From Longimicrobiales bacterium (GTDB taxonomy: Bacteria > Gemmatimonadota > Gemmatimonadetes > Longimicrobiales > RSA9): a DNA stretch of 64,000 nucleotides. The position numbers were made by a program, and so were the translations under genes. This document shows positions 1-62,463 of the stretch, in pieces. Below the pieces are notes generated by a model. It did not search any database, was not told the DNA's origin, and saw only the letters and a list, made by a program, of their open reading frames with translations. Numbering within the stretch: position 1 is the first letter of the stretch; each line of letters opens with the position of its first letter. Where the stretch lies: assembly GCA_035513345.1 (NCBI GenBank), contig DATKCF010000172.1, positions 24,043 through 88,042 of the forward strand, written 5' to 3'.

Positions 1-975
1 AAGGCCTCGCCATGGGAACTCGAGGACGCCGAGGAAGAACGCGTCGAGATCGTCGAGTACCACTCCCCGACGCGATTCGTCTTCGAGGAAGGCAGGCTCG
101 CGGGGATGGAGTTCGATGTCGTCGAATGGTACGACGACGGCGGCCGCCAGAAGGCCCGCACACTCGACACCGTCATCATTCCCTGCGATTGCGTCATCCT
201 CGCGATCGGCCAGGACAACGCGTTTCCGTGGATCGAGCGTGACATCGGCATCGAGTTCGGCCAGTGGGACATGCCCGTCGTCGATCGCACCACGTTCCAG
301 TCCACTCGCGACGGCGTGTTCTTCGGCGGCGATGCCGCGTGGGGCCCCGAGAATATCATCTGGGCCGTCGAGCACGGTCACCAGGCGGCAATCTCGATCC
401 ACAACTACTGCAACGGCATCCCGTTGACCGAGCGCGCGCCGTGGGGCATGAATCTCGCCTCGATGAAGATGGGCATGCACCAATGGAGCTACAGCAATTA
501 CTACGACACGGCGCAGCGCGCGAAGATGACCCACGTCGACCTGCGCGAGCGCTTCGAGAAGTTGAACATCGAAGTCGAGGTGGGCTTCAACGCCGAGCAG
601 ACCGCACGCGAAGTCGAGCGCTGCCTGAACTGCGACGTGCAGACCCACTTCACGACCGAGCTGTGCATCGAATGCGACGCGTGCATCGACGTCTGTCCCG
701 TCGACTGCCTGACGATGACCGCGAACAGCGAGGAACCGGTTCTGCGCGAGCAACTGACCGCGCCCGCCCGCAACCTCCAGCAACTGCTTTTCGTGTCCGA
801 CGACCTGCCGCAGACCGGCCGCGTCATGGTGAAGGACGAGGACCTGTGCCTGCACTGCGGCCTCTGTGCCGAACGCTGTCCGACAGCTGCCTGGGACATG
901 CGCAAGTCAGAGCTTCTCATCCCGTACGCGGGCAGGCCCGTACCCACGCGGCGCAGCCCGCAACCCGTTTCGTGA
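1..975 (+). CDS. GltD-like FAD/NAD(P)-dependent oxidoreductase fused to a C-terminal 2x[4Fe-4S] ferredoxin domain; 5' end lies outside the window
   Basis: Frame 1 is open from base 1 (KASPWELEDAEEERVEIVEY...) and continuous with ORF 106..975. FFGGDAAWGPENIIWAVEHGHQAA resembles the C-terminal FAD-binding end of glutamate-synthase-small-subunit-like oxidoreductases. Ferredoxin Cys motifs CIECDACIDVCP and CLHCGLCAERCP. Confidence 0.8.
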   Translation, partial: KASPWELEDAEEERVEIVEYHSPTRFVFEEGRLAGMEFDVVEWYDDGGRQKARTLDTVIIPCDCVILAIGQDNAFPWIERDIGIEFGQWDMPVVDRTTFQSTRDGVFFGGDAAWGPENIIWAVEHGHQAAISIHNYCNGIPLTERAPWGMNLASMKMGMHQWSYSNYYDTAQRAKMTHVDLRERFEKLNIEVEVGFNAEQTAREVERCLNCDVQTHFTTELCIECDACIDVCPVDCLTMTANSEEPVLREQLTAPARNLQQLLFVSDDLPQTGRVMVKDEDLCLHCGLCAERCPTAAWDMRKSELLIPYAGRPVPTRRSPQPVS

Positions 976-2869: not shown

Positions 2870-3924
2870 CAACGTCAATCGTAAAACCCAGGGTCCGCCA
2901 CCCCGGACTGCCCGTCAACGCCATCGGCCTCACCCGCCGCGACTATGAAGGCTCGATGTCCACCCTTTGCGCAGGGTGCGGCCACGATTCCATAACCGGC
3001 GCCATCATCCGCGCGTTCTTCGAGCTCGACATCCCCCCGCACAAGGTCGCCAAGCTCAGCGGCATCGGCTGCTCGTCCAAGACACCCACGTACTTCCTGC
3101 GCGAAGCCCACGGCTTCAACGCCGTCCACGGCCGCATGCCCTCGATCGGGACCGGCGCGTCCGCCGCCCGCCGCGATCTCGTCTATATCGGCGTGTCCGG
3201 CGATGGCGACTCCCTGTCCATCGGACTCGGCCAGTTCTGTCACGTCATTCGACGTAACGTGCAAATGCTCTATATCCTCGAGAACAACGGCGTGTACGGA
3301 CTCACCAAAGGCCAGTTCTCCGCGTCCGCCGACATCGGCTCGAAGCCCAAGCGCGGTGCGCCCAATCGCCAGGCACCCATCGATCCCGTCCTGCTCGCGC
3401 TGACCCTCGGTGCCACGTTCATAGCTCGCAGCTTCTCCGGTGACAAGGAACAGCTCGTCCCCATCATCAAGGCCGGCCTCCGTCACCGCGGCTTCGCTTT
3501 CATCGACGTCATCTCGCCATGCGTCACGTTCAACGACCACGAAGGCTCGACCAAGAGCTACAGCTTCACACGCAACCACATGCGCGAAGTCGTCCACGCC
3601 GACTTCGTCCAGCCACAGACGGAAATTTCCGTCAGCTACGCCCCAGGCGATAGTACCGCCGTCACCATGCACGATGGCTCGACCGTCACGCTCCACAAGA
3701 TCGACAACGATTACGACCCCACCGACCGCGATGCCGCTTACGCCTACATCCGCGCCCGCCAGAACGCCGACGAAGTCACCACCGGACTGCTCTATCTCGG
3801 CAAGGGCGCACCCGAAATGCACGACACCGAGAATACCGTCGATACGCCCCTCGCCGAATTGCCCTTCGATCAGCTCTGCCCCGGCTCCATTGCACTCGGC
3901 CAGCTAATGGATCGGTACCGCTAG
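2866..3924 (+). CDS. korB: 2-oxoacid:ferredoxin oxidoreductase beta subunit (TPP-binding, KorB-like)
   Basis: CAGCGHDSI Cys motif and TPP-binding GDGDSLSIGLGQF...ENNGVYGLTKGQ. GTG start overlaps the korA stop (GTGA) with GGAGG 7 nt upstream. Confidence 0.88.
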   Translation: MTTSIVKPRVRHPGLPVNAIGLTRRDYEGSMSTLCAGCGHDSITGAIIRAFFELDIPPHKVAKLSGIGCSSKTPTYFLREAHGFNAVHGRMPSIGTGASAARRDLVYIGVSGDGDSLSIGLGQFCHVIRRNVQMLYILENNGVYGLTKGQFSASADIGSKPKRGAPNRQAPIDPVLLALTLGATFIARSFSGDKEQLVPIIKAGLRHRGFAFIDVISPCVTFNDHEGSTKSYSFTRNHMREVVHADFVQPQTEISVSYAPGDSTAVTMHDGSTVTLHKIDNDYDPTDRDAAYAYIRARQNADEVTTGLLYLGKGAPEMHDTENTVDTPLAELPFDQLCPGSIALGQLMDRYR

Positions 3925-4036: not shown

Positions 4037-4498
4037 ATGCAGGATCCGTTCGCTTCGTTCTTCTCGACCCGCATGACCCCCATCAAGAACGGTGAAGACC
4101 GCCGCATCGAAGCCATCCGCATCGCCGCATGCGCACTGCTCCTCGAACTCGCATACGCCGACTCGGACTTCAATGACGCCGAACGGCTTCACATCGAAGC
4201 CGTCATGCGCAGACACTTCAACCTCGACGAGACAACCGCCAGGGAGATCATCGAACTGGCAGACGCAGCCCGCGAAAACGAACCCGATGTCCACCGCTTC
4301 GCCGCACTCATCCGCGACAACTACGATATCGGCCAGAAAATGCTGCTCGCCGAGATCATGTGGGGCCTCGTCCTCGCCGATGGCGGCATCGCGCGCCGCG
4401 AAGCCTACCTGCTTCGCCGTATCGCCAACCTGCTCGACCTCGAAGCCGGTTACCTCGACCGCGCCCGCAACTCGGCCGCCGACCGCGTCCAGCACTGA
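4037..4498 (+). CDS. TerB-family (tellurite-resistance-like) protein
   Basis: 153 aa. AACALLLELAYADSDFNDAERLHIEAVM and LAEIMWGLVLADGGIARREAYLLRRIANLL are the paired helical TerB-type repeats. AGGAG upstream of ATG 4037. Confidence 0.7.
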   Translation: MQDPFASFFSTRMTPIKNGEDRRIEAIRIAACALLLELAYADSDFNDAERLHIEAVMRRHFNLDETTAREIIELADAARENEPDVHRFAALIRDNYDIGQKMLLAEIMWGLVLADGGIARREAYLLRRIANLLDLEAGYLDRARNSAADRVQH

Positions 4499-24802: not shown

Positions 24803-24810
24803 CCGTGTCC

Positions 24811-24894
24811 CACGCGGACTCCTCCGCGTCAGGTGTTTCACGCGGACTCCTCCGCGCCAGGTGTTTCACGCGGACCCCTCCGCGCCAGGTGTTT
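24811..24894 (+). repeat. Three direct tandem copies of a 28-bp unit CACGCGGAC(T/C)CCTCCGCG(T/C)CAGGTGTTT, each with a CGCGGA/TCCGCG hairpin
   Basis: Units at 24811-24838, 24839-24866 and 24867-24894 were read directly. A fourth degenerate unit starts at 24895. The array begins 9 nt after the trkH stop. Confidence 0.9.
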
Positions 24895-25165
24895 CACGCT
24901 GCGGACGCAGTGGCAACGCAGGGGACGCTGAAGAACAGATATATTTTTCAGGGAGGCAACGTGCGCAGGGCACAGGGGTGAGGACCCGTTCCCGCCTGCG
25001 AGCACCCATCACGCTCAGCCCCTGACAGCCACCCATTCCGGACGGCGACAAGAACAATCAGATCTGTTCCACCCGCGCCCCCTGCGTGACCCCCGCGGCC
25101 CCTGCGTGAACCCCCCCGCGGCCCCTGCGCGAAACACCCTGCGGCCCTGCGTGAAACACCCTGCC
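24811..25165. mobile_element. MITE-like composite inverted-repeat element (putative, non-coding)
   Basis: The left array carries GGTGTTTCACGC. The right side (about 25074-25165) has 3-4 degenerate units CCGCGGCCCCTGCG(T/C)GAAACACCC, which are the inverse complement of the left motif. Inner inverted repeat GAACAGAT (24933-24940) / ATCTGTTC (25062-25069). It shares GTTTCACGC and ACGC(A/T)GGGGACGC motifs with the 43.5-kb repeats. Confidence 0.45.
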
Positions 25166-42420: not shown

Positions 42421-43506
42421 GTGGACGCCGGTACTCTCCTGCAGTTCGGGCTCGGCCTCGTTCTGCTCGTTGCAGGCGCGGAATCACTCGTTCGAGGCTC
42501 GGCCCGACTGGCCGCCGCGGTCGGCGTTCCTCCCCTCATAATCGGCCTGACGGTCGTCGCTTTCGGCACCAGTTCGCCGGAGATCGTCGTAAGCGTGCAA
42601 GCCGCCTTCTCGGACCGCGCCGACATTGCGCTCGGCAATGTCATCGGCAGCAACATCTTCAACGTCCTCTTCATCCTCGGCCTGTCTGCCGTCGTGGCCC
42701 CTCTGGTCGTGTCCGACCAGCTCGTTCGCTACGACGTGCCTATCATGATCGGCGCGTCATCGCTCGTCATGCTGCTCGGCATGAACGGCTCGCTGCACCG
42801 CCTCGAGGGTCTGCTCCTGCTCGTCCTCCTCGCTCTCTACATCGCGTTCCTCGCCTGGCTCTCACACAGGCGGGGACATCCACCACCAGGCCTCATCCCG
42901 GATCCGCCGACCGAGTCGAACCGTCTGGTCGATGTGATCCGTATCGCCGCCGGCCTCGCTCTCCTCGTGATCGGGTCACGCTTCCTGGTGAACGGCTCCG
43001 TCGCCATTGCCCGCTTCCTCGGCCTCAGTGAACTCGTCATCGGCCTCACCATCGTCGCGGCAGGAACCTCCCTTCCAGAGGTCGCAACGTCCGTCATTGC
43101 GAGCTACCGCGGCCAGAGAGACATTGCCGTTGGCAACATCATCGGTAGCAACATCTTCAACCTGCTGGCCGTCCTCGGCACCGCCGCCGTGCTGTCACCG
43201 CGCCCGCTCAACGTGTCGGCCGCCGCGCTGACCTTCGATCTGCCCGTCATGGTCGCCGTCGCCATGGCGTGCCTGCCGATCTTCGCCGGCCACCGCATCC
43301 CCCGCTGGATCGGCGTCCTCTTCCTGGCGTACTACGCCACGTATGTCACCTTCCTCGTCCTCGATGCGACCGACCACGAAGCCCTGCCCATCTTCAGCGG
43401 CGTCATGCTCTCCTTCGTCGTGCCGATCACCGTCGTTACCCTCGCGGTCATGCTGATCCGCTCGCGCAGGACCGCTGCCTCCGATCGTGACGGCCCACAC
43501 GGCTGA
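42421..43506 (+). CDS. Ca2+/cation antiporter (CaCA family, YrbG-like)
   Basis: The two alpha-repeat signatures GTSSPEIVVSV...GNVIGSNIFNVLFILG and GTSLPEVATSV...GNIIGSNIFNLLAVLG. Confidence 0.88.
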   Translation: MDAGTLLQFGLGLVLLVAGAESLVRGSARLAAAVGVPPLIIGLTVVAFGTSSPEIVVSVQAAFSDRADIALGNVIGSNIFNVLFILGLSAVVAPLVVSDQLVRYDVPIMIGASSLVMLLGMNGSLHRLEGLLLLVLLALYIAFLAWLSHRRGHPPPGLIPDPPTESNRLVDVIRIAAGLALLVIGSRFLVNGSVAIARFLGLSELVIGLTIVAAGTSLPEVATSVIASYRGQRDIAVGNIIGSNIFNLLAVLGTAAVLSPRPLNVSAAALTFDLPVMVAVAMACLPIFAGHRIPRWIGVLFLAYYATYVTFLVLDATDHEALPIFSGVMLSFVVPITVVTLAVMLIRSRRTAASDRDGPHG

Positions 43507-43509
43507 ACA

Positions 43510-43855
43510 CGCTCGGGGTTTCACGCTGGGGACGCTGGGGGGCGGAGGACGCTGGACGGATTACTCGTTGTTGAACTCACGACGGAGCACGGGTCGACGC
43601 GCACCCGCGCCCGGGATCGACCGCCAGACGTTCCGGCCATGTGGGGTGTCGACACACCGCCGCCCTATCCTGAACTGGCCAGCACCCGGGACCAGGCCCA
43701 GACCCGGAAGAGCCCCAGGAATGTCCCCGGCTGCCCGCCCGGAGTCGGTGCCATCCGGACGGCTGAAGAACAGCCAGCGTCCTCCTCCCCCTCCGCGTCC
43801 CCTGCGTGCAACTGCCGTTCCTACGCTCACGCAGGACGGCTGACTCCGATGTCCG
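43510..43855. mobile_element. MITE-like element, tandem copy A (about 346 bp) with roughly 40-bp imperfect terminal inverted repeats
   Basis: Left arm GGTTTCACGCTGGGGACGCTGGGGGGCGGAGGACGCTGGA (43517-43556) pairs with the reverse complement of CAGCCAGCGTCCTCCTCCCCCTCCGCGTCCCCTGCGTGCAAC (43771-43812). No credible ORF. Confidence 0.5.
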
Positions 43856-44071
43856 CGCTCGGGGTTTCACGCTGGGGACGCTGGGGGAGCGGACACGGGG
43901 ACGGATTACTTGTTGTTGAACTCACGGCCGGGCAGGGGTCGACGCGCCCCGAAGCCCCCAGAAAAAATGTCCGGCTGCCTGCCCGGAGTCGGCGGCATCA
44001 GAGGGCGAAAGAACAGCCAGCGTCCTCCGCCCCCACCGCGTCCCCTGCGTGCAACAGCAGTTCGTTCACGC
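43856..44071. mobile_element. MITE-like element, tandem copy B (about 216 bp; internal deletion relative to copy A)
   Basis: It starts with the same CGCTCGGGGTTTCACGCTGGGGACGCTGGGG, shares GGATTACT(C/T)GTTGTTGAACTCACG and the right arm CAGCCAGCGTCCTCCGCCCCCACCGCGTCCCCTGCGTGCAAC (44014-44055), and lacks roughly 130 bp of copy A's interior. Confidence 0.5.
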
Positions 44072-44093
44072 CGAGGAAACCTGAAAAGCCGGT

Positions 44094-44531
44094 CTATTCC
44101 TCCGCCCGGACCGGGCCACGCTGTTTCTTCTTCTCGCCCTGCCGCTTCTTCTCGCGCAGCCGCTTCTCTTTCACGGCCCGTGACGGCTTCGTCTTGCGAC
44201 GGGGTCGACGGTTCCGCAGTGCGCCGGCAAGGAGTTCGATGAACCGGTCGGTCACGGTTTCGCGGTTCTGGAGCTGGCTGCGGCTGCCGCTTTCCACGAT
44301 ACGGAGTACGCCGCGGCTGTCGATGCGGTTGGCCAGCCGGTCCAGGATGCGGGCGCGCTGCGCGTCGGTCAGAGACGGCGAGCCGGAAACGTCCCATGTC
44401 AGCTCGATCCGGGTCGCGCTCGTGTTCACGTGCTGGCCGCCCGGTCCGCCGGACCGGGTCGCACGGTACGTCAGCTCGGCGGCCGACACGACAAGATCGT
44501 CGTTGATGTGCAGCCCATCGTCGGTCATCAT
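44094..44531 (-). CDS. arfB: Alternative ribosome-rescue factor ArfB (peptidyl-tRNA hydrolase, YaeJ-like)
   Basis: RSGGPGGQHVNTSATRIEL (GGQ motif) and a basic C-terminal tail RRPRRKTKPSRAVKEKRLREKKRQGEKKKQR. Confidence 0.9.
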   Translation of the reverse strand: MMTDDGLHINDDLVVSAAELTYRATRSGGPGGQHVNTSATRIELTWDVSGSPSLTDAQRARILDRLANRIDSRGVLRIVESGSRSQLQNRETVTDRFIELLAGALRNRRPRRKTKPSRAVKEKRLREKKRQGEKKKQRGPVRAEE

Positions 44532-44612
44532 CGCTCCTGCTGCCGGACCCGGGGGTCAGGCATTACACTAACCGGTCGAACGGGGCGCTCGGCCGCGTTC
44601 CACCTGGGGAGG

Positions 44613-48377: not shown

Positions 48378-49689
48378 TCACATTGTCCTGGCCGAGGACG
48401 ACCGCGAGCTGCGCACGTTCCTCACCGAGGTCCTCGAGGAAGCGGGCTTCGATGTGTCCGCGTTTCCGAACGCCGAGCTGGCACTCGACCACCTGTCCTC
48501 CGACCGACCGGCCGACCTGCTCGTCACCGACCTCATCATGCCCGGCATGCGTGGCCACGAGCTGCTCTCCGAGGCCCGCCGCCGCCGGCCCGAGATCAAC
48601 GTCATTGCCATCACGGCGTTCGGCTCGATCGACTCCGCGATTCAGCTCGTCAAGCAGGGCGCTTATGACTACCTGACCAAACCGTTCGGCAGTGACGAGT
48701 TCGTGCACGTCATCGAACGCGCGCTCGAGGAAAGCCGCACCCGCCGACAACTCGCCGCCGTCACCCGTGACGCGCCGCCGCCCCTGGCCGACTTCATTGG
48801 CGTCAGCCCGCCCATGCAGGAACTCTTCGGACTGATCCGCCGCGCCGGACCCTCAATGCGCTCGATCCTCATTACCGGCGAAACCGGGACCGGCAAGGAA
48901 CTCGTCGCGCGCTCGCTCCACGCCGTTTCCGGCAGACCGAACTTCGTTGCAGTCAACTGCTCCGCGTTCCCCGAGAATCTCCTGGAATCCGAACTGTTCG
49001 GTCACGAGAAGGGCTCGTTCACCGGCGCCGACCGCATGAAGATCGGCCTCTTCGATGCAGCCGATGGCGGCACCCTCTTCCTCGACGAAATCGCCGAACT
49101 GCCCATCGCGCTACAGCCCAGACTGCTGCGTGCCCTCGAGAGTGGCGAGATCCGGCGCGTCGGCGCCACCGCCAATCGATCCGTCGACGTCCGCGTCCTC
49201 GCCGCAACCAATCGCGACCCCGATGAGGAAGTCCGCGCCGGCCGGTTCCGCGAGGATCTCCTCTGGCGACTCAACGTCGTCAACATCGCCGTACCGCCGC
49301 TCCGCGAACGAGCCGCCGATATCCCGCTCCTCGCTCAGCACTTCGCCGGCACACGCACCATCTCGCCCGACGCCATGTCGCTCCTCGTCGGCTACCCCTG
49401 GCCCGGCAACATCCGCGAACTCCGCAACGCCCTCGACCGCGCCGTCGCTCTTTCCCCGGGCGACACCATCCGACCCGACGACCTGCCACCCCGCATCCAG
49501 TCCGCCGGCCGCGCCGCCTACATCGTCGCCGACGCTTCACGCCGACAAGTATCGCTGCGTAACCTCGAACGCGAGTACATCCTCGAGATCCTCCGCCAGG
49601 TCGGTGGCAACAAGAGCCGCGCCGCCGAGATCCTCGGCCTCGACCGCAAGACCCTCTACCGCAAGCTCGACGAGTACGGGCAGCAGTAG
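48370..49689 (+). CDS. Sigma-54-dependent response regulator (NtrC family enhancer-binding protein)
   Basis: Receiver domain ([13 protein letters not shown]), AAA+ Walker A GETGTGKE, sigma-54 contact loop GSFTGA, C-terminal Fis-type [23 protein letters not shown]. Start overlaps the kinase stop by 8 nt. Confidence 0.9.
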
Positions 49690-49723
49690 CCTCGGCCTCT
49701 GACGGGTGGTTCGTCACCGAGGC
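49689..49723 (+). terminator. Candidate terminator hairpin after the response regulator gene
   Basis: GCCTCGG-cctc-TGACG-ggtggtt-CGTCA-CCGAGGC begins at the last base of the stop codon. No clear U-tract. Confidence 0.4.
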
Positions 49724-49785
49724 ATTCTCGACGGCTGCCACGCCACGCCCGGATCGGCAGCCTGTGGGGAGGTCCGGGACAGTGC

Positions 49786-49800
49786 GTGGCTTATTGCCAC
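49786..49800. promoter_or_regulatory. Palindrome GTGGC-TTATT-GCCAC; candidate upstream activator site for the adjacent NtrC-type activator
   Basis: Perfect 5-5-5 inverted repeat about 80 nt upstream of the sigma-54 -24 element, followed by an AT-rich stretch (TATTTATAAGTGATTCAAAGACAACATCTTACG) that could be a bending site. Confidence 0.4.
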
Positions 49801-49876
49801 ACCCCCTCCCTCGGCCGGCGGTCCGTCTCGTATTTATAAGTGATTCAAAGACAACATCTTACGTCATTGTCGCGTT

Positions 49877-49892
49877 CGGCACCGGGCTTGCC
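49877..49892 (+). promoter_or_regulatory. Sigma-54 (-24/-12) promoter, CGGCAC-N5-TTGC
   Basis: cGGCACcgggcTTGCc has GG-N10-GC spacing and matches the TGGCAC-N5-TTGC consensus at 9 of 10 defined positions. It lies about 90 nt upstream of the usp start and directly downstream of a sigma-54 activator gene. Confidence 0.65.
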
Positions 49893-49981
49893 TCTCCATG
49901 TCAACGCCGCAACGGAACGGGTCTGGTGCGGAGCGGCGGACGAAACCGGTCCGCGGGGTGTGAGCGGACGCGGAGCTGGGC

Positions 49982-55050: not shown

Positions 55051-57159
55051 ATGGCAGGCAAGGACACCCGATACCTCGACCGTGAGCTGAGCTGGCTCGC
55101 CTTCAACGAGCGCGTTCTGCAGGAGGCGGCGGACGCGTCCGTTCCGCTCGGCGAGCGACTCAACTTCCTGGCGATCTTCTCGTCGAATCTCGACGAGTTC
55201 TTCCGCGTCCGTGTCGCATCGCTGCGCAGCCTGCTGCGCCTCAGGAAGAAGAAGGTCGAGCAGCTCGACATTGATCCATCCACTCTGCTGGCCGACATCT
55301 ACCGCGTCGTCGGCGCACAGCAGGAACGTTTCGGCCGTATCTTCCGCGAGGATGTGCTGCCCGCACTGGCCGCGCGCGGCATCCGTCTGCGCACAGGTGC
55401 GGACCTGACTCCGGCACAGCAACGCACCGTCGCTGCATGGTTCGATGAGCACGTCAGGCCGCTCATCGATCCCGTGCTGCTCGACGATGACACTCAGCCG
55501 TTCCTGCAGAACCGGGCCATCCATCTCGTGGTCGAGTTGTGGCCGCGTGAAGGTCGCGGCGTCAGCGCTGTCGCGCCCGACTACGCGCTCGTGCGCGTGC
55601 CCAGTCCGCCACTGCCGCGATTTCTCTCCCTCGACGGCGACGATGGCGCCCGGGACGTCATGTTTCTCGATGACGTGATTCGCGCGAACCTGCCGCGGCT
55701 GTTCGATGCCCACGAGACAGGTGAGGCGTACGCGATCAAGCTGTCGCGTGATGCGGACCTGAACCTCGAAGACGAGTTCGAAGGTGACCGTGTCGCATCG
55801 ATACGGAAAAGTCTGAAGAAACGCGAGACCGGAGCACCCTGCCGTTTCCTGTATGATCTTCAGACACCGGAGCTGCTTGCGAATTTCCTGTGCAGGATCT
55901 TCGAGCTCGAACCCGAGGACCTGATCGCGGGCGGCCGCTACCACAACCTGCACGACCTGAGCGAGTTCCCGCGCGGTGATGACGACAGCGCGATGTACTC
56001 GCCGCTCGAGCCACTGCCGCATCCGGATCTCGAGACCGCGAGGTCTCTCGTCGACGCGATCGAGGAACGAGACCGCCTGCTCCATTTCCCGTACCACCGC
56101 TTCGACTACGTCATCGAGTTGCTCGAGGAAGCCGCGGCGGACCCTGCTGTCGATGCGATCAGCATCACGCTCTATCGTGTGGCCAGAGACTCGGCCGTTG
56201 CCGAAGCGTTGATCCGCGCGGCCCGCGCCGGAAAACGCGTGCTGGCGGTGGTCGAGCTGAAGGCACGGTTCGATGAGGAATCGAACCTCGACTGGTCGGA
56301 GCGCCTCGAACAGGCGGGCGTGCGCATCATACACGGCGTGCGGGGGCTCAAGGTTCATGCGAAGCTTGCGCTCATCGCGAGACGGGATGGCCGGCCCGCG
56401 ATCGGCTACTTCGGTACGGGTAATTTCAACGAGAACACCGCGAGAGTGTACACGGACTACGCGCTGCTCACCGCTGACCCGCGATTGACCGCGGATGCGG
56501 CGCGCGTCTTCGCGTTCCTGGCGGGCGAGAATGACAGTCCGGCGTTCGAGCATCTGCTGGTCGCGCCGTTCACTCTGCGCGATGGGCTCCGTGACCTCAT
56601 CGCGGCGGAGGCGGCAGCGGCGAAAGACGGCGGTACCGGCCGGATCCTGCTCAAGATGAACAGCCTCGAGGACCGGCGTATCATCAACCGGCTCTATCGC
56701 GCTTCGCAGGCCGGCGTGTCGATCGACATGATCGTGCGCGGCATCTGCTGCCTCGAACCGGGCGTGACCGGCGTATCGGACACGATCCACGTACGAAGCA
56801 TTGTCGATCGGTTCCTCGAGCACGGCCGGGTATTCATCTTCGAGAACCGAGGCGAGCCACTGTTCTTTCTGGCTTCCGCCGACTGGATGTACCGCAACCT
56901 CAGCCGCCGTGTCGAGGTGGCGTTCCCGATCTTCGATCCGGACGTGCGGGCCGACCTCGAGTCGTTCCTCGGGCTGCAACTGGCTGACTCGACGAAGGCA
57001 CGGATCATCGATCCGTCGCAAGTCAACGCATATGCGCGGAGCAATGGCGGACCCGCCGTGCGCGCGCAGGTCGAGACGTACCGGCTCCTTGCCTCGAGGG
57101 CGGCGGCGCTACAGCCGGCCCCCGTTCCACGCTCGGCACACGACGACTCACCGACATGA
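55051..57159 (+). CDS. ppk: Polyphosphate kinase 1
   Basis: YLDRELSWLAFNERVLQEA...LNFLAIFSSNLDEFFRVRV and two PLD-like HKD-type regions (KVHAKLALI, RFLEHGRVFIF). Confidence 0.93.
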   Translation: MAGKDTRYLDRELSWLAFNERVLQEAADASVPLGERLNFLAIFSSNLDEFFRVRVASLRSLLRLRKKKVEQLDIDPSTLLADIYRVVGAQQERFGRIFREDVLPALAARGIRLRTGADLTPAQQRTVAAWFDEHVRPLIDPVLLDDDTQPFLQNRAIHLVVELWPREGRGVSAVAPDYALVRVPSPPLPRFLSLDGDDGARDVMFLDDVIRANLPRLFDAHETGEAYAIKLSRDADLNLEDEFEGDRVASIRKSLKKRETGAPCRFLYDLQTPELLANFLCRIFELEPEDLIAGGRYHNLHDLSEFPRGDDDSAMYSPLEPLPHPDLETARSLVDAIEERDRLLHFPYHRFDYVIELLEEAAADPAVDAISITLYRVARDSAVAEALIRAARAGKRVLAVVELKARFDEESNLDWSERLEQAGVRIIHGVRGLKVHAKLALIARRDGRPAIGYFGTGNFNENTARVYTDYALLTADPRLTADAARVFAFLAGENDSPAFEHLLVAPFTLRDGLRDLIAAEAAAAKDGGTGRILLKMNSLEDRRIINRLYRASQAGVSIDMIVRGICCLEPGVTGVSDTIHVRSIVDRFLEHGRVFIFENRGEPLFFLASADWMYRNLSRRVEVAFPIFDPDVRADLESFLGLQLADSTKARIIDPSQVNAYARSNGGPAVRAQVETYRLLASRAAALQPAPVPRSAHDDSPT

Positions 57160-57908
57160 ACGCCGCCAACGACAGCGAACCACAGCGTCGCGATCCGCGC
57201 GGCGCGCAGAACGCCACTGGCCAGCCGGGCCAACCGGAGCAGGCCGGTCCGACGCCGCCGTTCCCCGGTCGACCGGCCGCATCGGCCGTGAATGAGCCCG
57301 GTCCGGAAGGTGGGGGCCTCGGGAAAAAGAAGAAGAAGAAGGCCGGCAAGGACAAGCTCGGTTCATCACGCGGCATCGAGACGATGTTCCGCACGTCCTA
57401 CCGTACACACATCGACATGAGTTCGCTGGCCGACAGCAAGGCGAACATCATGATCAGCATCAACGGCCTCATCATGTCGATCATGATCGCCTCGATCTCG
57501 CCCAAGATCGACACCAATGCGTGGCTGCTGCTGCCGACCAGTGTACTGCTGATCGGCTGCCTCGTATCCATGGTCTACGCCGTGCTCGCCGCCCGCCCGC
57601 GCGTCACGAACCGCGAAATCTCGCTCGACGACGTGCGCAACGACCGCGCGAACATCCTGTTCTTCGGCAATTTCGTGAACATGGACGAAGCGGACTACAC
57701 CGAAGGCATGAAGGAACTGCTGCAGAATCCCGACGCTCTCTACCTGAACATGATCCGCGACATCTACAGCCTGGGCCGCGTGCTGGCGAAGAAGTTCCAC
57801 TACCTGCGGATCTCGTACGCTGTGTTCATGGCAGCGCTCGTCATTGGCGTCTGCTTCTTCCTGCTCGTTCTGCTCACTGTCGTATTGCGGACGGGTCCAA
57901 CGGTCTGA
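57156..57908 (+). CDS. DUF5706 / PycTM-like membrane protein with disordered N-terminus
   Basis: ATGA overlap with the ppk stop. Core RGIETMFRTSYRTHIDMSSLADSKANIMISINGLIMSIMIASI, LLLPTSVLLIGCLVSMVYAVLAARPRV, ANILFFGNFVNM, and C-terminal TM AVFMAALVIGVCFFLLVLL. Recognised from memory as DUF5706 (PF18967); needs an HMM check. Confidence 0.7.
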   Translation: MNAANDSEPQRRDPRGAQNATGQPGQPEQAGPTPPFPGRPAASAVNEPGPEGGGLGKKKKKKAGKDKLGSSRGIETMFRTSYRTHIDMSSLADSKANIMISINGLIMSIMIASISPKIDTNAWLLLPTSVLLIGCLVSMVYAVLAARPRVTNREISLDDVRNDRANILFFGNFVNMDEADYTEGMKELLQNPDALYLNMIRDIYSLGRVLAKKFHYLRISYAVFMAALVIGVCFFLLVLLTVVLRTGPTV

Positions 57909-57941: not shown

Positions 57942-60900
57942 TCAGGCGTCCGCAGCCGCCAGCTGCTCGAGCAGCGCGGCGGCATCGCGCAGGTCCGGCA
58001 GTTCGTGGCCCTCGGTGAAGGTCTCGTAGACCGGACGCAGAACGTCGTGTGCTTCGCGGTGCCGGCCGGTCGCGATCAGGATGCGGCCCAGGCTGGTGGC
58101 CGCGCGCAGTTCGGGCGACCGTGCGCTCTGCCGCCGCGCGTCCGCGATTGACTGCCGCAACCAGGACTCCGCTTCCGCCTGCCGGCCATCGATCGACGCC
58201 AGCACCTGTGCCATTAGATGGCAGAACTCGGACTGCCAGCGGAACGCCGACATGACACGCGATTGATTTGTTACGCGGTCCAGGATGCTCAGTGCATCGT
58301 CGATCCGGCCGATGCGGCTGTACACGCGGGCCATCCGCAGGTCGTATTGCGGGTCGGCACCCGAACCCCGGTCGCGGAACAGGCTGGCTGCATGCTCGAT
58401 GCGCTCGACGGCGGCGTCCGCTTTCCCGTTCTCCGACAGGAGGCAGGCCTGCATGAGTAGTGCGTCCGCCTGCCAGTGCTTGAACCGTTGCTCTGTGGCA
58501 AGCGACAGCAGCTCCTCGGCCACGGCCGTGACCGCTTCGGTATCGCGACGCCACAGGTGCTGTGCACCGAGGAACGCGAGCGCCAGCGCAAGGCTGTGAG
58601 GGTGCCCGATGCGACGCGCCAGGTCGACCGCCGCCTCTCCCGTCCGCCGCGACTGAATCGGGTATCCCGCGAACCAGTGGACCGCGCCCAGGTACGCGTG
58701 GCTGACAACGCCGAGGTCGTGACCGAACGACAGGTGCAGCGATGCGTGCCGCTCGGGATCGTAGGTCGCGATCGCGTCATCGAAGTGGCGCCGGGCGACG
58801 GGCAGGTTGCCGCGGTTCAGATGCACGGACCCCTGTGCGGCATTGGCGATCAGGCTGATCTGCTCGGAGCCCGTTGTCGCGGCCAGCTCGGTCAGCTCGT
58901 CGGCCAGACGGCCGGCCTCGCCCAGATCGAGCCGCACGATGTGGTACGCGAACAGGCCGACCGTGACAGCCGCGAGCCGGGCCGGCTCGTTCAGTTCGAG
59001 ACACAGCGACCGAGCTCGTTCGTAGGCGTTGCGGACATCGACGGACGTGTAGCCCTCGGTCGCGATCAGTGCGGTGCCGAGCGCGGCCTGCATCTCGAAC
59101 TCCAGCCGCGTGTGGTCGGCTGATGGCTTCGCCAGAGCGAGTTGCTCGAGGCCCCGCCGCAGATGCGCGACCGCTTCCAGGTTCGCCCATGACCGCATCG
59201 CCCGCACGCCCGCGTCTCGCCAGTACGGTGCGGACAGCTCCGGCAAACCGGCCGCCGCATAGTGCAGCGCGATCGTTTCCGGCTCCGCCGCGGCCCGTTC
59301 CGCGAACCGGTTCACCAGGACATCCGCAATGCGCATGTGATAGCGCTGGCGAGTGCTGCGCAGAAGCGACTCGTACGCCGCTTCCTGGATCAGCGCGTGC
59401 TTGAACGCGTACGTCGCGGTGCCGCCCGACTCGACTTCATGAATGAGTTCCGCGTCCACGAGCCGGTTCAGCGCATCGCGCAGAACGGCTTCGTCGATTG
59501 CCGCAACGGCCATCAGCACGTCATACGAGAACTCGCGGCCGATGGCCGCGCCGAGTTGGGCCATCTCCTTGACCGACGCCAGCCGGTCGAGCCTCGCCTC
59601 GAGCGAGTCCTGCAGCGTCGCGGGTATCGCGAGCGGCGGCAGAGGACCGACGAGTTCGTACCGGTCGGCGTGCTCTACCAGCAGGCCGGACTGAAGCACC
59701 GTCTTGCTCAGTTCCTCGACGAACAGTGGCACGCCATCGGTGCGCAGCACGATCTGACGGATCACCTCGGCCGGTACCGCCTTCCCGGCTACCGCCAGGA
59801 CGATCCGTTCCGTGTCGCCGGGTGACAGTCGGTCGAGCAAAATGGCGGCCGTGCCGGTCTGGCCGTCCCACGAGGGAGCAAACTCCGGCCGTGTCGTGAA
59901 CAGCGCGAGGACTCGCCTGTCGCCGATCATCGCGGCGAACTGGTCGAGCAGTTCGAGCGTCGACGGGTCCGCCCAGTGGATGTCCTCGACAAGCAGCACG
60001 ACGGGACAGGACTCCGTCGACTTCATCAGCATCTGGATGATCCACGCCCGGGTCCGCTCCTTCAGGGCTTCGGCCGAGGGCGCACCGTCGGACGTTTCGA
60101 AGGGGATGCCGAGCAGTCCGGCGAACGCGGGCAGCGCTTCGCGAACAGGCAGGCCGTCACGGTCCAGCATGGTCTCGAGCGAAAGCAGCGCCTGCTCGCT
60201 GGTCCGGCCGCTCTTCAGGCCCGTTTCCGCTTCCAGCCAGTTGACGATCGGATGGAACGCCGTGTTCCGGTAATAATTCAAGCAGCGGCATTCGACGATG
60301 ACATGGGATGTGCCTGCGAGCGTCGTGAGGAACGCGTCGATCAGGTGCGACTTGCCGATGCCGGCATCGCCGGTCAAGGTGACGGCGACGCCGCGGCCGG
60401 ACAGCACGCCGTCCCATGCGTCGGTCAGAGCGGCCAGCTCGGCTTCCCGGCCGATCAGTTCCGTCCGGCGACCGGCCCGCTGGTCGTCGTGGACGGCATC
60501 CACGCGGTAGACCGAGCCGATGCCGGGCACTCCGCGAAGCGATCGCGGGCCGAGATCGGTCGTATCGAAGCTGCGGGAAACGAGGCGGTGCGTCACGGCG
60601 CTGATGACGACCGTGTTCGGCTCCGCGACCGCCTGAAGCCGAGCGGCAATGTTGGGCGTGCCGCCCAGCGCGAGGTTCTCCCGGCGAGCGCCGCTGCCGA
60701 CTTCGCCGACCACGACCAGGCCAGTGTGGATGCCGACGCGTACCGCCAGGTCCTCGCCCGTTCGGTGGCGCCAGCGCTCACCGAGGCGCCTGACCTCGGC
60801 GGTCACGCCGAGCGCGGCCCGGACCGCGCGCTCGGCTTCGTTCTCGAGGGCCACAGGGTAGCCGAAGTAGGCCAGCACGCCATCGCCGAGGTACTGGGCG

Positions 60901-61289
60901 ATATGACCATCGAACCGTTCGATGGCTCGGCCGCACACCTCCTGGTAGCCGCGCACGAGCTGGTGCAGCTCCTCGGGGTCGAGGTCGAGCGATAACCGGG
61001 TCGAACCGACCAGGTCGCAGAACATGACCGTCAGCTGCCGCCGCTCCGCATCCGGCTCCGCCGGCAGCCGGCCAGCCAGGTGCGGCGACACCGGCTCGAG
61101 CGCAACGCCGCAGCCACCACAGAATCGGAAGCGCGGCGGGTTCCGGGTGCCGCACGCGGGACAGACCACATCGAGTGGCGCACCGCAGCATCCGCAGTAG
61201 CTCAGACCGCGTGGGCTCTCGAAGCCGCAGCGCGCACAACCGGCGCCGGTGTCTTCCGTCGGTTCTCTGCTGTCGGTCGAGATCAGCAC
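57942..61289 (-). CDS. Multidomain signalling protein: double zinc ribbon + class III adenylate/guanylate cyclase + AAA/STAND ATPase + TPR-like repeats
   Basis: CARCGF...YCGCCG...CPACG...FCGGCG; cyclase core LTVMFCDLVGST...GDGVLAYFGYP...RVGIHTGLVVVGEVG...GGTPNIAARLQ; P-loop TGDAGIGKSHL; long helical-repeat C-terminus. AGGAGGAGG 6 nt upstream of GTG 61289; the track ORF extends to 61550. Confidence 0.85.
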   Translation of the reverse strand: MLISTDSREPTEDTGAGCARCGFESPRGLSYCGCCGAPLDVVCPACGTRNPPRFRFCGGCGVALEPVSPHLAGRLPAEPDAERRQLTVMFCDLVGSTRLSLDLDPEELHQLVRGYQEVCGRAIERFDGHIAQYLGDGVLAYFGYPVALENEAERAVRAALGVTAEVRRLGERWRHRTGEDLAVRVGIHTGLVVVGEVGSGARRENLALGGTPNIAARLQAVAEPNTVVISAVTHRLVSRSFDTTDLGPRSLRGVPGIGSVYRVDAVHDDQRAGRRTELIGREAELAALTDAWDGVLSGRGVAVTLTGDAGIGKSHLIDAFLTTLAGTSHVIVECRCLNYYRNTAFHPIVNWLEAETGLKSGRTSEQALLSLETMLDRDGLPVREALPAFAGLLGIPFETSDGAPSAEALKERTRAWIIQMLMKSTESCPVVLLVEDIHWADPSTLELLDQFAAMIGDRRVLALFTTRPEFAPSWDGQTGTAAILLDRLSPGDTERIVLAVAGKAVPAEVIRQIVLRTDGVPLFVEELSKTVLQSGLLVEHADRYELVGPLPPLAIPATLQDSLEARLDRLASVKEMAQLGAAIGREFSYDVLMAVAAIDEAVLRDALNRLVDAELIHEVESGGTATYAFKHALIQEAAYESLLRSTRQRYHMRIADVLVNRFAERAAAEPETIALHYAAAGLPELSAPYWRDAGVRAMRSWANLEAVAHLRRGLEQLALAKPSADHTRLEFEMQAALGTALIATEGYTSVDVRNAYERARSLCLELNEPARLAAVTVGLFAYHIVRLDLGEAGRLADELTELAATTGSEQISLIANAAQGSVHLNRGNLPVARRHFDDAIATYDPERHASLHLSFGHDLGVVSHAYLGAVHWFAGYPIQSRRTGEAAVDLARRIGHPHSLALALAFLGAQHLWRRDTEAVTAVAEELLSLATEQRFKHWQADALLMQACLLSENGKADAAVERIEHAASLFRDRGSGADPQYDLRMARVYSRIGRIDDALSILDRVTNQSRVMSAFRWQSEFCHLMAQVLASIDGRQAEAESWLRQSIADARRQSARSPELRAATSLGRILIATGRHREAHDVLRPVYETFTEGHELPDLRDAAALLEQLAAADA

Positions 61290-61470
61290 AGTGCCCCTCC
61301 TCCTGTTTACGACAGGTGCACGCGGTGGCTGCCGCGTCCCTCTGATGGTATCGTGGGCACACGTGGCACGGCCACCCGCCCGACGGCCGGTCGGTCCGTG
61401 TCTGCCGTCAGGATTGGATCCGTCCACCATCCGGACATCGCGCCCGGCGAAACGAGACGCCACACCGGAA

Positions 61471-61513
61471 GGTGCAACGAAGTTGAACACCGGAGGTGCA
61501 ACGACGTTGAACG
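61471..61513 (+). repeat. Two direct copies of GGTGCAACGA(A/C)GTTGAAC spaced 24 bp apart, just upstream of the SdiA-regulated-domain gene
   Basis: Copies at 61471-61489 and 61495-61513, 17 of 19 identical, each preceded by CCGGA(A)G. They lie in the divergent intergenic region 61290-61530. Confidence 0.6.
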
Positions 61514-61530
61514 TGAAAGCCCAGGCTCTG

Positions 61531-62463
61531 ATGGGACGCCGCAGGACCATCCTGGCATTCGAGCGATACCCGACGACCTTGTATCTCCTGACGATTGGTG
61601 CGCTGGCGCTCTCGGCCGGCGTTGCGGTCGCGGCAAACGCGACCTGTGCGCTGACAGGCGACCAGGCTCCGAGCGCGCTCGCGGGCTACGACTTCAGTGC
61701 GGACGATGTCCGCCACATCGAACTGCCCCGCCCGCTCCACGAGATCTCCGGTCTGGCGCTCGACGCCACTGACGGCCTGTTCGCGCATCATGATGAACGG
61801 GCGACAGTGTTCCGGCTCGATCCGGCGGATGGCCGGATCCTGTCATCATTCAACCTCGGCCGCCGTGGGCGCGCGGGCGATTTCGAAGGCATCGCGCTGG
61901 CCGGCTCGCGCTTCTTTCTGGTCACCAGTGATGGCCGACTGCTCGAGTCCGGCCACGGCGAAGATGGCGCCACGGTGGAGTTCGACGAGATCAGGATCGC
62001 GTCGCGCCGGGTCTGTGCCGAGATCGAAGGCCTCGAATACGATGCGCCCGGCAACGCGCTGCTGCTCGCCTGCAAGTTCACCGAAGGCCGGGCCCTTCGC
62101 GACCGGCTCGTCATCCTGCGATTCTCGCTCCGCTCCCGCACGCTCGACGCCGAGCCGTTCATTTCGTTGCCGGTCGAATCGCTCGAACCGTTCGGCCTCG
62201 GCTCCACCATCAATCCGTCCGGCATCGCGATCCATCCGCTCACCGGTACGATCATCGTGCTGGCTGCTCGCCAGCGTGCGATCGTCGAGCTGGACCGCAA
62301 CGGCAGCGTGCTCGGTGCCGCCAGGTTGCGACGCCGCTACCACGCGCAGGCCGAAGGCATCGCGGTCACCCGTGACGGCACACTGATCATCGCCGATGAG
62401 GGCGACTCCGGCACCGCGAAACTGACGTATTATGCATACCGGCCGGTGGCCGGCGGACGATGA
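61531..62463 (+). CDS. SdiA-regulated-domain (YjiK-like) beta-propeller protein, membrane-anchored or secreted
   Basis: N-terminal RRR + hydrophobic segment (TTLYLLTIGALALSAGVAVAA). EISGLALD, DFEGIALAG, EIEGLEYD, NPSGIAIHP, AQAEGIAVTRDGTLIIADEGD follow the YjiK blade pattern. Alternative TTG start at 61507. Confidence 0.7.
   Translation: MGRRRTILAFERYPTTLYLLTIGALALSAGVAVAANATCALTGDQAPSALAGYDFSADDVRHIELPRPLHEISGLALDATDGLFAHHDERATVFRLDPADGRILSSFNLGRRGRAGDFEGIALAGSRFFLVTSDGRLLESGHGEDGATVEFDEIRIASRRVCAEIEGLEYDAPGNALLLACKFTEGRALRDRLVILRFSLRSRTLDAEPFISLPVESLEPFGLGSTINPSGIAIHPLTGTIIVLAARQRAIVELDRNGSVLGAARLRRRYHAQAEGIAVTRDGTLIIADEGDSGTAKLTYYAYRPVAGGR

Follow-up and report, generated by a model that had tools for sequence, protein, structure and literature searches.

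We asked what occupies the 587-nt (~590 bp) intergenic gap at 43507-44093 between two convergent genes of a Longimicrobiales MAG (Gemmatimonadota), and how it came to be there. The gap lies within a 64 kb stretch of DNA, the whole of which is referred to here as the window. It is bounded by the gene for a CaCA/Na_Ca_ex antiporter (42421-43506, + strand), whose protein is an exact match to HUF70131.1, and by arfB (44094-44531, - strand), whose RF-1 domain product is an exact match to HUF70132.1; the TrkH (HUF70116.1) and S41/tricorn protease (HUF70117.1) proteins of the window are also exact matches to this source. An original prediction had interpreted the gap as two tandem copies of a MITE-like element or, alternatively, of a structured RNA gene. 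We find that the gap is filled by a previously undescribed repeat family, which is of a known general kind, an ordinary repeat of selfish or structural character, and is not a gene. We consider it probable that this is a lineage-specific, non-autonomous palindromic ("foldback") intergenic repeat family of Longimicrobiales, similar in kind to MITEs, REPINs and BIMEs.

Two non-coding units with inverted arms fill the antiporter-arfB gap

The gap contains, in order, copy A (43510-43821), a 34-nt spacer (43822-43855), copy B (43856-44064) and a 29-nt trailer (44065-44093), all read on the + strand, with nothing else left over. Copy A is a full-length unit of 312 nt (nhmmer score 347) in which the left end CGCTCGGGG is followed by a left arm (43518-43555; GTTTCACGCTGGGGACGCTGGGGGGCGGAGGACGCTGG, with an internal 17-nt repeat of GGACGCTGG), an AT-rich core (43558-43581; GGATTACTCGTTGTTGAACTCACG), an interior of ~190 nt, a right arm (43774-43812; CCAGCGTCC...GCGTGCAAC) and a right end that closes in ..AACTGCCGTTCC. 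Copy B is 209 nt long and matches A in its ends, in its arms, which are at 43864-43893 and 44017-44055, and in its core, at 43903-43926, and is without 101 nt. The full unit of ~310 nt can be described as two ~40-nt imperfect inverted arms, a conserved AT-rich core and asymmetric conserved ends, with GTTTCACGC and GGACGC(T/G)GG motifs as the building blocks of the arms.

The original prediction had described two head-to-tail units with the same start, a shared core pattern, a common right end and imperfect inverted arms of ~40 nt at ~80% identity, together filling the whole gap, and each of these features was recovered. An identical 31-mer, CGCTCGGGGTTTCACGCTGGGGACGCTGGGG, opens both A (43510) and B (43856), the pattern GGATTACT(C/T)GTTGTTGAACTCACG has two matches (43558-43581 and 43903-43926) against none expected in shuffled sequence, and both copies finish CCAGCGTCC...GCGTCCCCTGCGTGCAAC. 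Arm complementarity in A and B is 80-94% when measured piecewise and 31/35 in a gapped alignment. Copy B was also expected to lack ~130 bp of the interior of A; an interior deletion is present, but its size is 101 nt, equivalent to A 43602-43702, and the larger figure arose because the 34-nt spacer had been counted into unit A.

The two copies differ by indels of 1, 2, 19 and 101 nt, and units across the family range from 209 to 322 nt. These indels break every frame, so that no reading frame is kept between copies, in agreement with the prediction that the gap holds no credible ORF. A coding reading of the core, which gives DGLLVVELTAEQ in one frame with synonymous-looking changes, was rejected on finding that the frames differ between copies. 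Inside copy B, on the - strand, which is the sense strand of arfB, a small, terminator-like GC hairpin is followed by CATTTTTTCT (43970-43987); the T run after the hairpin is found only in some copies, namely B, the L011-type copies and, weakly, L009.

The 48 ORFs of the window, when scanned against Pfam, are ordinary metabolic, transport and signaling genes. No transposase, recombinase, integrase or Y1/HUH domain was found among them, as had been expected for transposases, and no RAYT (Y1_Tnp domain) was present among the window ORFs either. Two features of the gene content stand apart from the repeats. The ORF at 57156-57908 (+), which overlaps the end of the polyphosphate kinase gene by 4 nt, specifies a PycTM (Pycsar effector) domain protein and converges with a gene at 57942-61550 (-) for a 1202-aa protein with adenylate/guanylate cyclase, AAA_16 and TPR domains; these two genes may form a cyclic-nucleotide defense or signaling pair. 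Additionally, our crude ORF picker called no gene at 48380-49980, a position at which L012 and L017 have a sigma-54 response regulator after the histidine kinase, and the empty interval reflects either an ORF miscall or a frameshift in the MAG.

Copies of the unit occur at unrelated loci

Scanning metagenomes for the core motif yielded seven contigs, five of which (L004, L005, L007, L008 and L009) contain true copies at loci without the antiporter or arfB; of the other two, L006 shared the 21-nt query motif alone and L010 lacked any wider match. The dispersed copies align across the whole unit with nhmmer E values from 1e-26 to 1e-112. They represent at least three further loci, one shared by L005, L007 and L008, one in L009 and one in L004 (the same as L030, with a 92%-identical ortholog in L029), and at least four unrelated loci were counted in metagenome contigs. 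Identity from lineage to lineage is 75-87% in a star-like pattern, and is ~80% over the full 310-nt unit at unrelated loci. In ~150 kb of related contigs, copies were found only at the sites described here. The claim of an inverted-repeat element family is thus upheld by a non-coding unit with inverted arms at the L004/L029/L030, L005/L007/L008 and L009 loci.

A scan of species-representative genomes with GAGTTCAACNACNAGTAATCC, a narrow pattern that would not match the TTCTTG of the L011-type core, gave only two matches, L002 (Flavisolibacter) and L003 (Huijunlia). In L002, only the 25-nt core matched by blastn and nhmmer, and L003 had no match to the unit in blastn. The plasmid collection contained no match to the unit in the distant mode of BLASTN, and viral contigs contained no match to the arm pattern or the core pattern.

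No copy overlaps coding sequence, and where the neighboring gene was identified, in four cases, the copy starts within a few nucleotides of its stop codon; copy A begins 3 nt past the antiporter TGA. Half-copies are present at L004 and L029. Both orthologous contigs at the L004 gene are filled, and the exact inserted segment is therefore not delimited at this locus by an empty site. Several side observations were made at these loci. Between L029 and L004 (92% protein identity), an 880-nt segment differs (L029 3135-4000 versus L004 1376), contains a reverse-strand ORF of 176 aa and is placed precisely where the half-element is truncated on its inner side. The gap with the element in L029 and L004 is upstream of a tricorn-protease paralog, as is a second repeat of the window, element C, described below. 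In L005 (~120-150 and 500-530, reverse strand view), and also in L008 and L007, an extra 26-nt inverted repeat, GGGGATGTGGAGACATGAACGGCGAT / ATCGCCGTTCGAATCTCCACATCCCC, surrounds the unit, and this nesting could reflect a composite element of larger size or an insertion into a hairpin that was already there.

The dispersed copies bear directly on whether the gap simply holds immobile DNA that evolved in place as regulatory or structural sequence, such as an array of binding sites, a bidirectional terminator or an invertible switch. The GGACGC(T/G)GG and GTTTCACGC motifs of the arms look like binding sites, the position between convergent genes suits a terminator, and the hairpin on the arfB strand is terminator-like. 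However, a ~80%-identical unit of 310 nt at unrelated loci largely refutes this explanation, as local evolution does not account for the full-length unit there; we regard it as highly improbable. An invertible switch is further opposed by the orientation of the interior relative to the arms, which is the same in all of at least 20 copies, and a promoter switch would be senseless between two 3′ ends, where no promoter was found. An inverton was accordingly rejected, with a single orientation in all copies from more than 10 metagenomes and no promoter-like site. Two known site types were compared with the unit by eye and were also rejected. The arms do not conform to the RYYYAAC/GTTRRRY motifs of integron attC sites, and the length of the unit is too great for one; the motif bound by IHF is WATCAANNNNTTR, and the core contains no match to it.

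Structural variation at the antiporter-arfB site

Gene order around the gap is conserved in relatives, with ZnuA, ABC-3, two small ORFs, the antiporter, arfB, DUF6624 and DUF5128. In syntenic but more distant relatives, whose antiporter proteins are 76-77% identical to that of the window, the antiporter-arfB gap is 9 nt (L012) or 49 nt (L013) compared with 587 nt in the window. The unit is therefore absent at the same syntenic site, in support of the earlier reading of an inverted-repeat element family. L014, which is close to L012, has a different insert after the antiporter (4190-4330), in which a 23-nt repeat occurs five times in tandem (CCTCTGCGGCCTTGATACGACGA) ahead of a diverged arm of the family, GGGGTTTCACGCGCC...GGGGGACGGAATTTCGG; this contig ends before arfB.

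Close strains, with flanking genes at 94-98% DNA identity to the window, show five structural states at the site. L011 and L015-L019 have one full unit; L023-L026 have a 17-nt stub of the left end, then a 34-nt module, a single unit and the trailer; L028 has two full-length units, its B copy being without the deletion; the window has A and the deleted B; and L001 has A without its left arm plus a remnant of B. We conclude from these five states among close strains that the site is structurally unstable. Orthologous copies are 75-82% identical, and we estimate flank synonymous divergence at ~0.1-0.2. Replacement of resident copies by paralogs was considered and is not required, as 75-82% is close to the expected neutral divergence. 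As a separate observation, in L001, the ArfB of which is identical to that of the window, the left arm of A is replaced at 3860-3918 by unrelated, AT-richer sequence, ..GCAGTGGATAACTCCTGGCATACCTATAA; the contig ends at the replaced arm, which suggests another repeat or IS there.

The spacer argues against two independent insertions. The last codons of the antiporter gene (43459-43485, +; CGCTCGCGCAGGACCGCTGCCTCCGAT, encoding ..RSRRTAASD..) are the source of a copy within the spacer at 43824-43850, with 24 of 27 positions identical. This sequence is native to the antiporter, since the IRSR motif (..IRSRR..) is conserved in distant homologs. A homologous spacer, TCCGCTCGCGCAATACAGTGCCGG, separates the two copies of L028. 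The trailer (TTCACGCCGAGGAAACCTGAAAAGCCGGT) abuts the arfB stop codon, and the TTCACGCCGAGGA with which it begins is identical to the left-arm variant of L007 over the first 13 nt of the trailer; it is present in L001 and L022-L028 and absent from L011-type strains. From this similarity, we read the trailer as a putative stub of a third unit. Because the spacer holds a copy of the gene tail and because relatives vary between a single copy, a copy with a stub and two copies, we conclude that A and B arose by local tandem duplication or unequal recombination of the gene tail together with the unit. The tandem duplication is older than the split of the window, L001 and L028 lineages.

Ends and flanks of the copies

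The left end of all copies is CGC(T/C)CG(G/A)G(G)TTTCACGC, and the right end is ..AAC(A/T)G.. followed by GTTC, which is found in 7/8 variants, with GTTA in L005 and L008. The outermost conserved bases, CGCTCGGG on the left and AGNNGTTC on the right, lie outside the inverted repeat and are not symmetric, and the inverted repeat is consequently subterminal. MITEs are characterized by terminal inverted repeats; the arms here, of ~40 nt at 80-89%, are subterminal.

Target-site duplications and a cognate transposase had both been named as checks on the MITE-like reading, and neither emerged. The junctions of A, B, L011, L005 and L024 show no direct repeat. The sole candidate is a 10-nt direct repeat, GAAGTGCGAG, in L009 (~155-165 and 590-600), which brackets not a single unit but a composite of leader, unit, CGCTCGGGG stub and leader; by our own estimate, made before correction for multiple looks, the probability of this repeat by chance is ~0.01. 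Neither the window nor the plasmid collection nor the viral contigs yielded a transposase, RAYT or integrase whose ends match. The MITE-like reading is partly supported, namely in the non-coding, armed and dispersed character of the unit.

Short "leader" modules recur beside the left end at different loci. The gene-tail leader TCCGCT(C/T)GCGCAGGAC is found in both the window and L028 and also at unrelated L005, where the antiporter-tail sequence TCCGCTCGCGCAGGAC is placed just upstream of the copy (15/16, E = 0.005 in a small flank database). A second leader, ..CCCACACTTCTTCCGATATCCGG (..CCCACA(C/T)TTCTTC(C/T)G(A/G)TATCCGG), recurs in L004 and L009 and at the antiporter locus in L023-L026. These mosaics of leaders and units, which resemble BIME-like clusters, show that flanking DNA was copied along with units or was swapped among units by ectopic recombination. 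Classical cut-and-paste transposition is not favored, given the lack of target-site duplication, the subterminal repeats and the flanking tags that move with copies; RAYT-like, rolling-circle or site-specific spreading are candidate routes.

These observations raise the possibility of a miniature element moved by a non-classical mechanism, either rolling-circle or one-ended copying (IS91-like) or site-specific recombination at the 3′ ends of genes. Such movement would explain co-transfer of flanks, tandem arrays and absent target-site duplications, and is consistent with the antiporter-tail 16-mer adjoining the copy at unrelated L005, the ..CCCACACTTCTTCCGATATCCGG leader common to L004, L009 and the L023-L026 antiporter locus, the tandem units and stubs of the window, L028 and L009, and the placement of units directly past stop codons, as in the 3 nt that follow the antiporter TGA. 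IS91 inserts beside GTTC or CTTG without duplication, and the GTTC at the right end of 7/8 variants fits this pattern; however, the likeness to IS91 is based on four bases. Additionally, no gene for a Rep/HUH protein or an integrase was seen, the leader modules are short and diverged, and unequal recombination with ectopic gene conversion could give the same mosaics. We consider such a mechanism unlikely as the explanation for the family.

RNA structure and conservation of the core

The AT-rich core is the best-conserved block over all family members. In three family alignments, its columns are largely invariant with few substituted positions, and the core and several short blocks of the interior are near-invariant compared with an overall divergence of ~20%, which is roughly the neutral level inferred from the flanks, given their DNA identity of 94% and our estimate of ~0.15-0.2 for synonymous divergence. 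In a pure MITE, it would be unusual for the core to be better conserved than the arms, and this pattern hints at a function at the level of the host or of RNA.

The alternative offered by the original prediction was that the units are structured ncRNA genes, to which we add RNAs derived from 3′ UTRs, in which the stem and core would act as RNA and spreading would be secondary. The fold of copy A is better than that of shuffled sequence (RNA, z = -4.35; DNA, z = -2.75), its 24-nt core is near-invariant in all copies at ~20% neutral divergence, four interior pairs show double changes, and the elements are in 3′ regions that are probably transcribed. Against this, copy B folds no better than shuffles (z = -1.07), and the four double-change pairs do not exceed the shuffle control (90/500). 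The RNAalifold covariation term was unfavorable with both 5 copies (+4.92) and 11 copies (+3.62), although this test is weak since only about six independent lineages are available. Among 32 arm pairs, 23 are invariant, 3 are changed in one partner, 6 have lost pairing and there is no compensated pair, and the predicted structure of the interior differs between two alignments. No sigma-70-like promoter was found, and the losses that have been tolerated include the 101-nt deletion, the left arm of L001 and the missing halves at L004 and L029. Rfam 15 gave nothing at the gathering threshold over the whole window and no family match to the unit even at E <= 10, with only chance miRNA-type matches (E > 0.3) in 43000-44600. 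We find no support, in a test of low power, for a structured RNA beyond a simple long hairpin, and consider RNA genes a doubtful explanation of the family.

A second repeat in the window

A match of the family profile at 24877-24928 led to a second repeat, element C (24803-25165, +), which belongs to a related subfamily and occupies ~360 nt of the gap between the TrkH and tricorn/S41 protease genes. Its left side consists of three 28-nt units in tandem, all of which contain GGTGTTTCACGC and a small hairpin, and its right side of four ~23-nt units with the inverse GCGTGAAAC, in addition to an inner stem; its DNA fold has a z of -5.1. By eye, element C and the main family have CCGGACGGCG.AAGAACA in common, and the exact sequence GTTTCACGC occurs six times in the 64 kb, only at the A/B locus and in element C. 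L020 and L021 also have element C at this site, where it differs in the number of units and by an indel of 83 nt in the interior. Nine other intergenic gaps had no clear long inverted repeat, three of them containing single 20-21-nt pairs with 71-90% complementarity.

Discussion

The evidence points to a non-autonomous palindromic intergenic repeat family of Longimicrobiales. Copies would have reached new loci as DNA, presumably through an enzyme acting in trans that recognizes the arm motifs and is encoded elsewhere in the genome, such as a transposase, a RAYT-like enzyme or a recombinase. After settling just past stop codons, the long GC-rich hairpins may persist as largely neutral DNA. At the antiporter-arfB site, the family now appears to undergo tandem amplification, deletion and recombination, and one copy type, seen in B and the L011-type copies, seems to have gained the hairpin and T run on the arfB strand. 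It is plausible that the hairpins end or stabilize the transcripts of the convergent flanking genes.

We have considered whether the family is something more novel, either an undescribed miniature mobile element of Gemmatimonadota that is copied along with the DNA next to it (through a rolling-circle or one-ended process, or by a site-specific one at 3′ gene ends) or a repeat whose core is a new structured RNA or protein-binding module. Copying with adjacent DNA is prompted by the gene-tail tag at an unrelated locus, the tandem arrays with stubs and the lack of target duplications. We think it improbable that either version is correct, and favor the non-autonomous palindromic repeat family.

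As far as our literature search shows, this is the first such repeat family for a phylum with none described: searches for Gemmatimonadetes with "miniature inverted-repeat" gave nothing relevant, and the arm sequence likewise. The family explains breaks and variation in metagenome assemblies of soil Longimicrobiales at such sites, and the antiporter-arfB gap can serve as a strain-level marker, since it has at least five structural states at 94-98% flank identity. It also exemplifies the duplication of a host gene's 3′ end by an element. Constraint is stronger on the core than on the arms, and this, if functional, could point to a host factor or a new mobilizing enzyme.

Several known systems share features with the family. 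Bacterial MITEs, such as Correia/NEMIS of Neisseria and Nezha of cyanobacteria, are likewise non-coding elements of ~200-350 nt with inverted-repeat arms that can form a long hairpin, are dispersed between genes, and vary among strains in presence and through internal deletions. In contrast to MITEs, no target-site duplication was detected for the Longimicrobiales family, its repeats are subterminal and its outer ends asymmetric, there is no known parent IS whose ends match, its core is more conserved than its arms, and leaders and a piece of a host gene tail move along with it.

Tn3-derived TIMEs are also reminiscent of the family, in that the left arm starts GGGGT.T.ACGCT and the arms are ~38-40 nt long. 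The Tn3 inverted repeat is GGGGTCTGACGCT, and TIMEs have 38-bp inverted repeats that start GGGG at either end, plus a 5-bp duplication. Assignment to the TIMEs was rejected, as the reverse complement of the right end, GGAACGGCAGTTGCACGC, is without the GGGG start and no 5-bp repeat is present; unlike TIMEs, the unit also has no ..TAAG inner end. The ERIC/IRU repeats of enterobacteria are imperfect palindromes in transcribed intergenic regions that vary at orthologous sites and form size variants through internal indels, all of which they share with the Longimicrobiales family, although they belong to another phylum, show no sequence similarity to it and are smaller.

The REP/BIME sequences and RAYT-mobilized REPINs differ from the main family in having units of ~35-110 nt, compared with a unit of 310 nt that has a long conserved interior, and the main family has no GTAG-type 5′ tetranucleotide and an apparently low copy number in available DNA. 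They are alike in being extragenic palindromes just past stop codons or between convergent genes, with alternating orientation, mosaic clusters, a strain-variable number of units and no target-site duplication, and element C, with its hairpin units of 23-28 nt, three direct and four inverted, extends this likeness.
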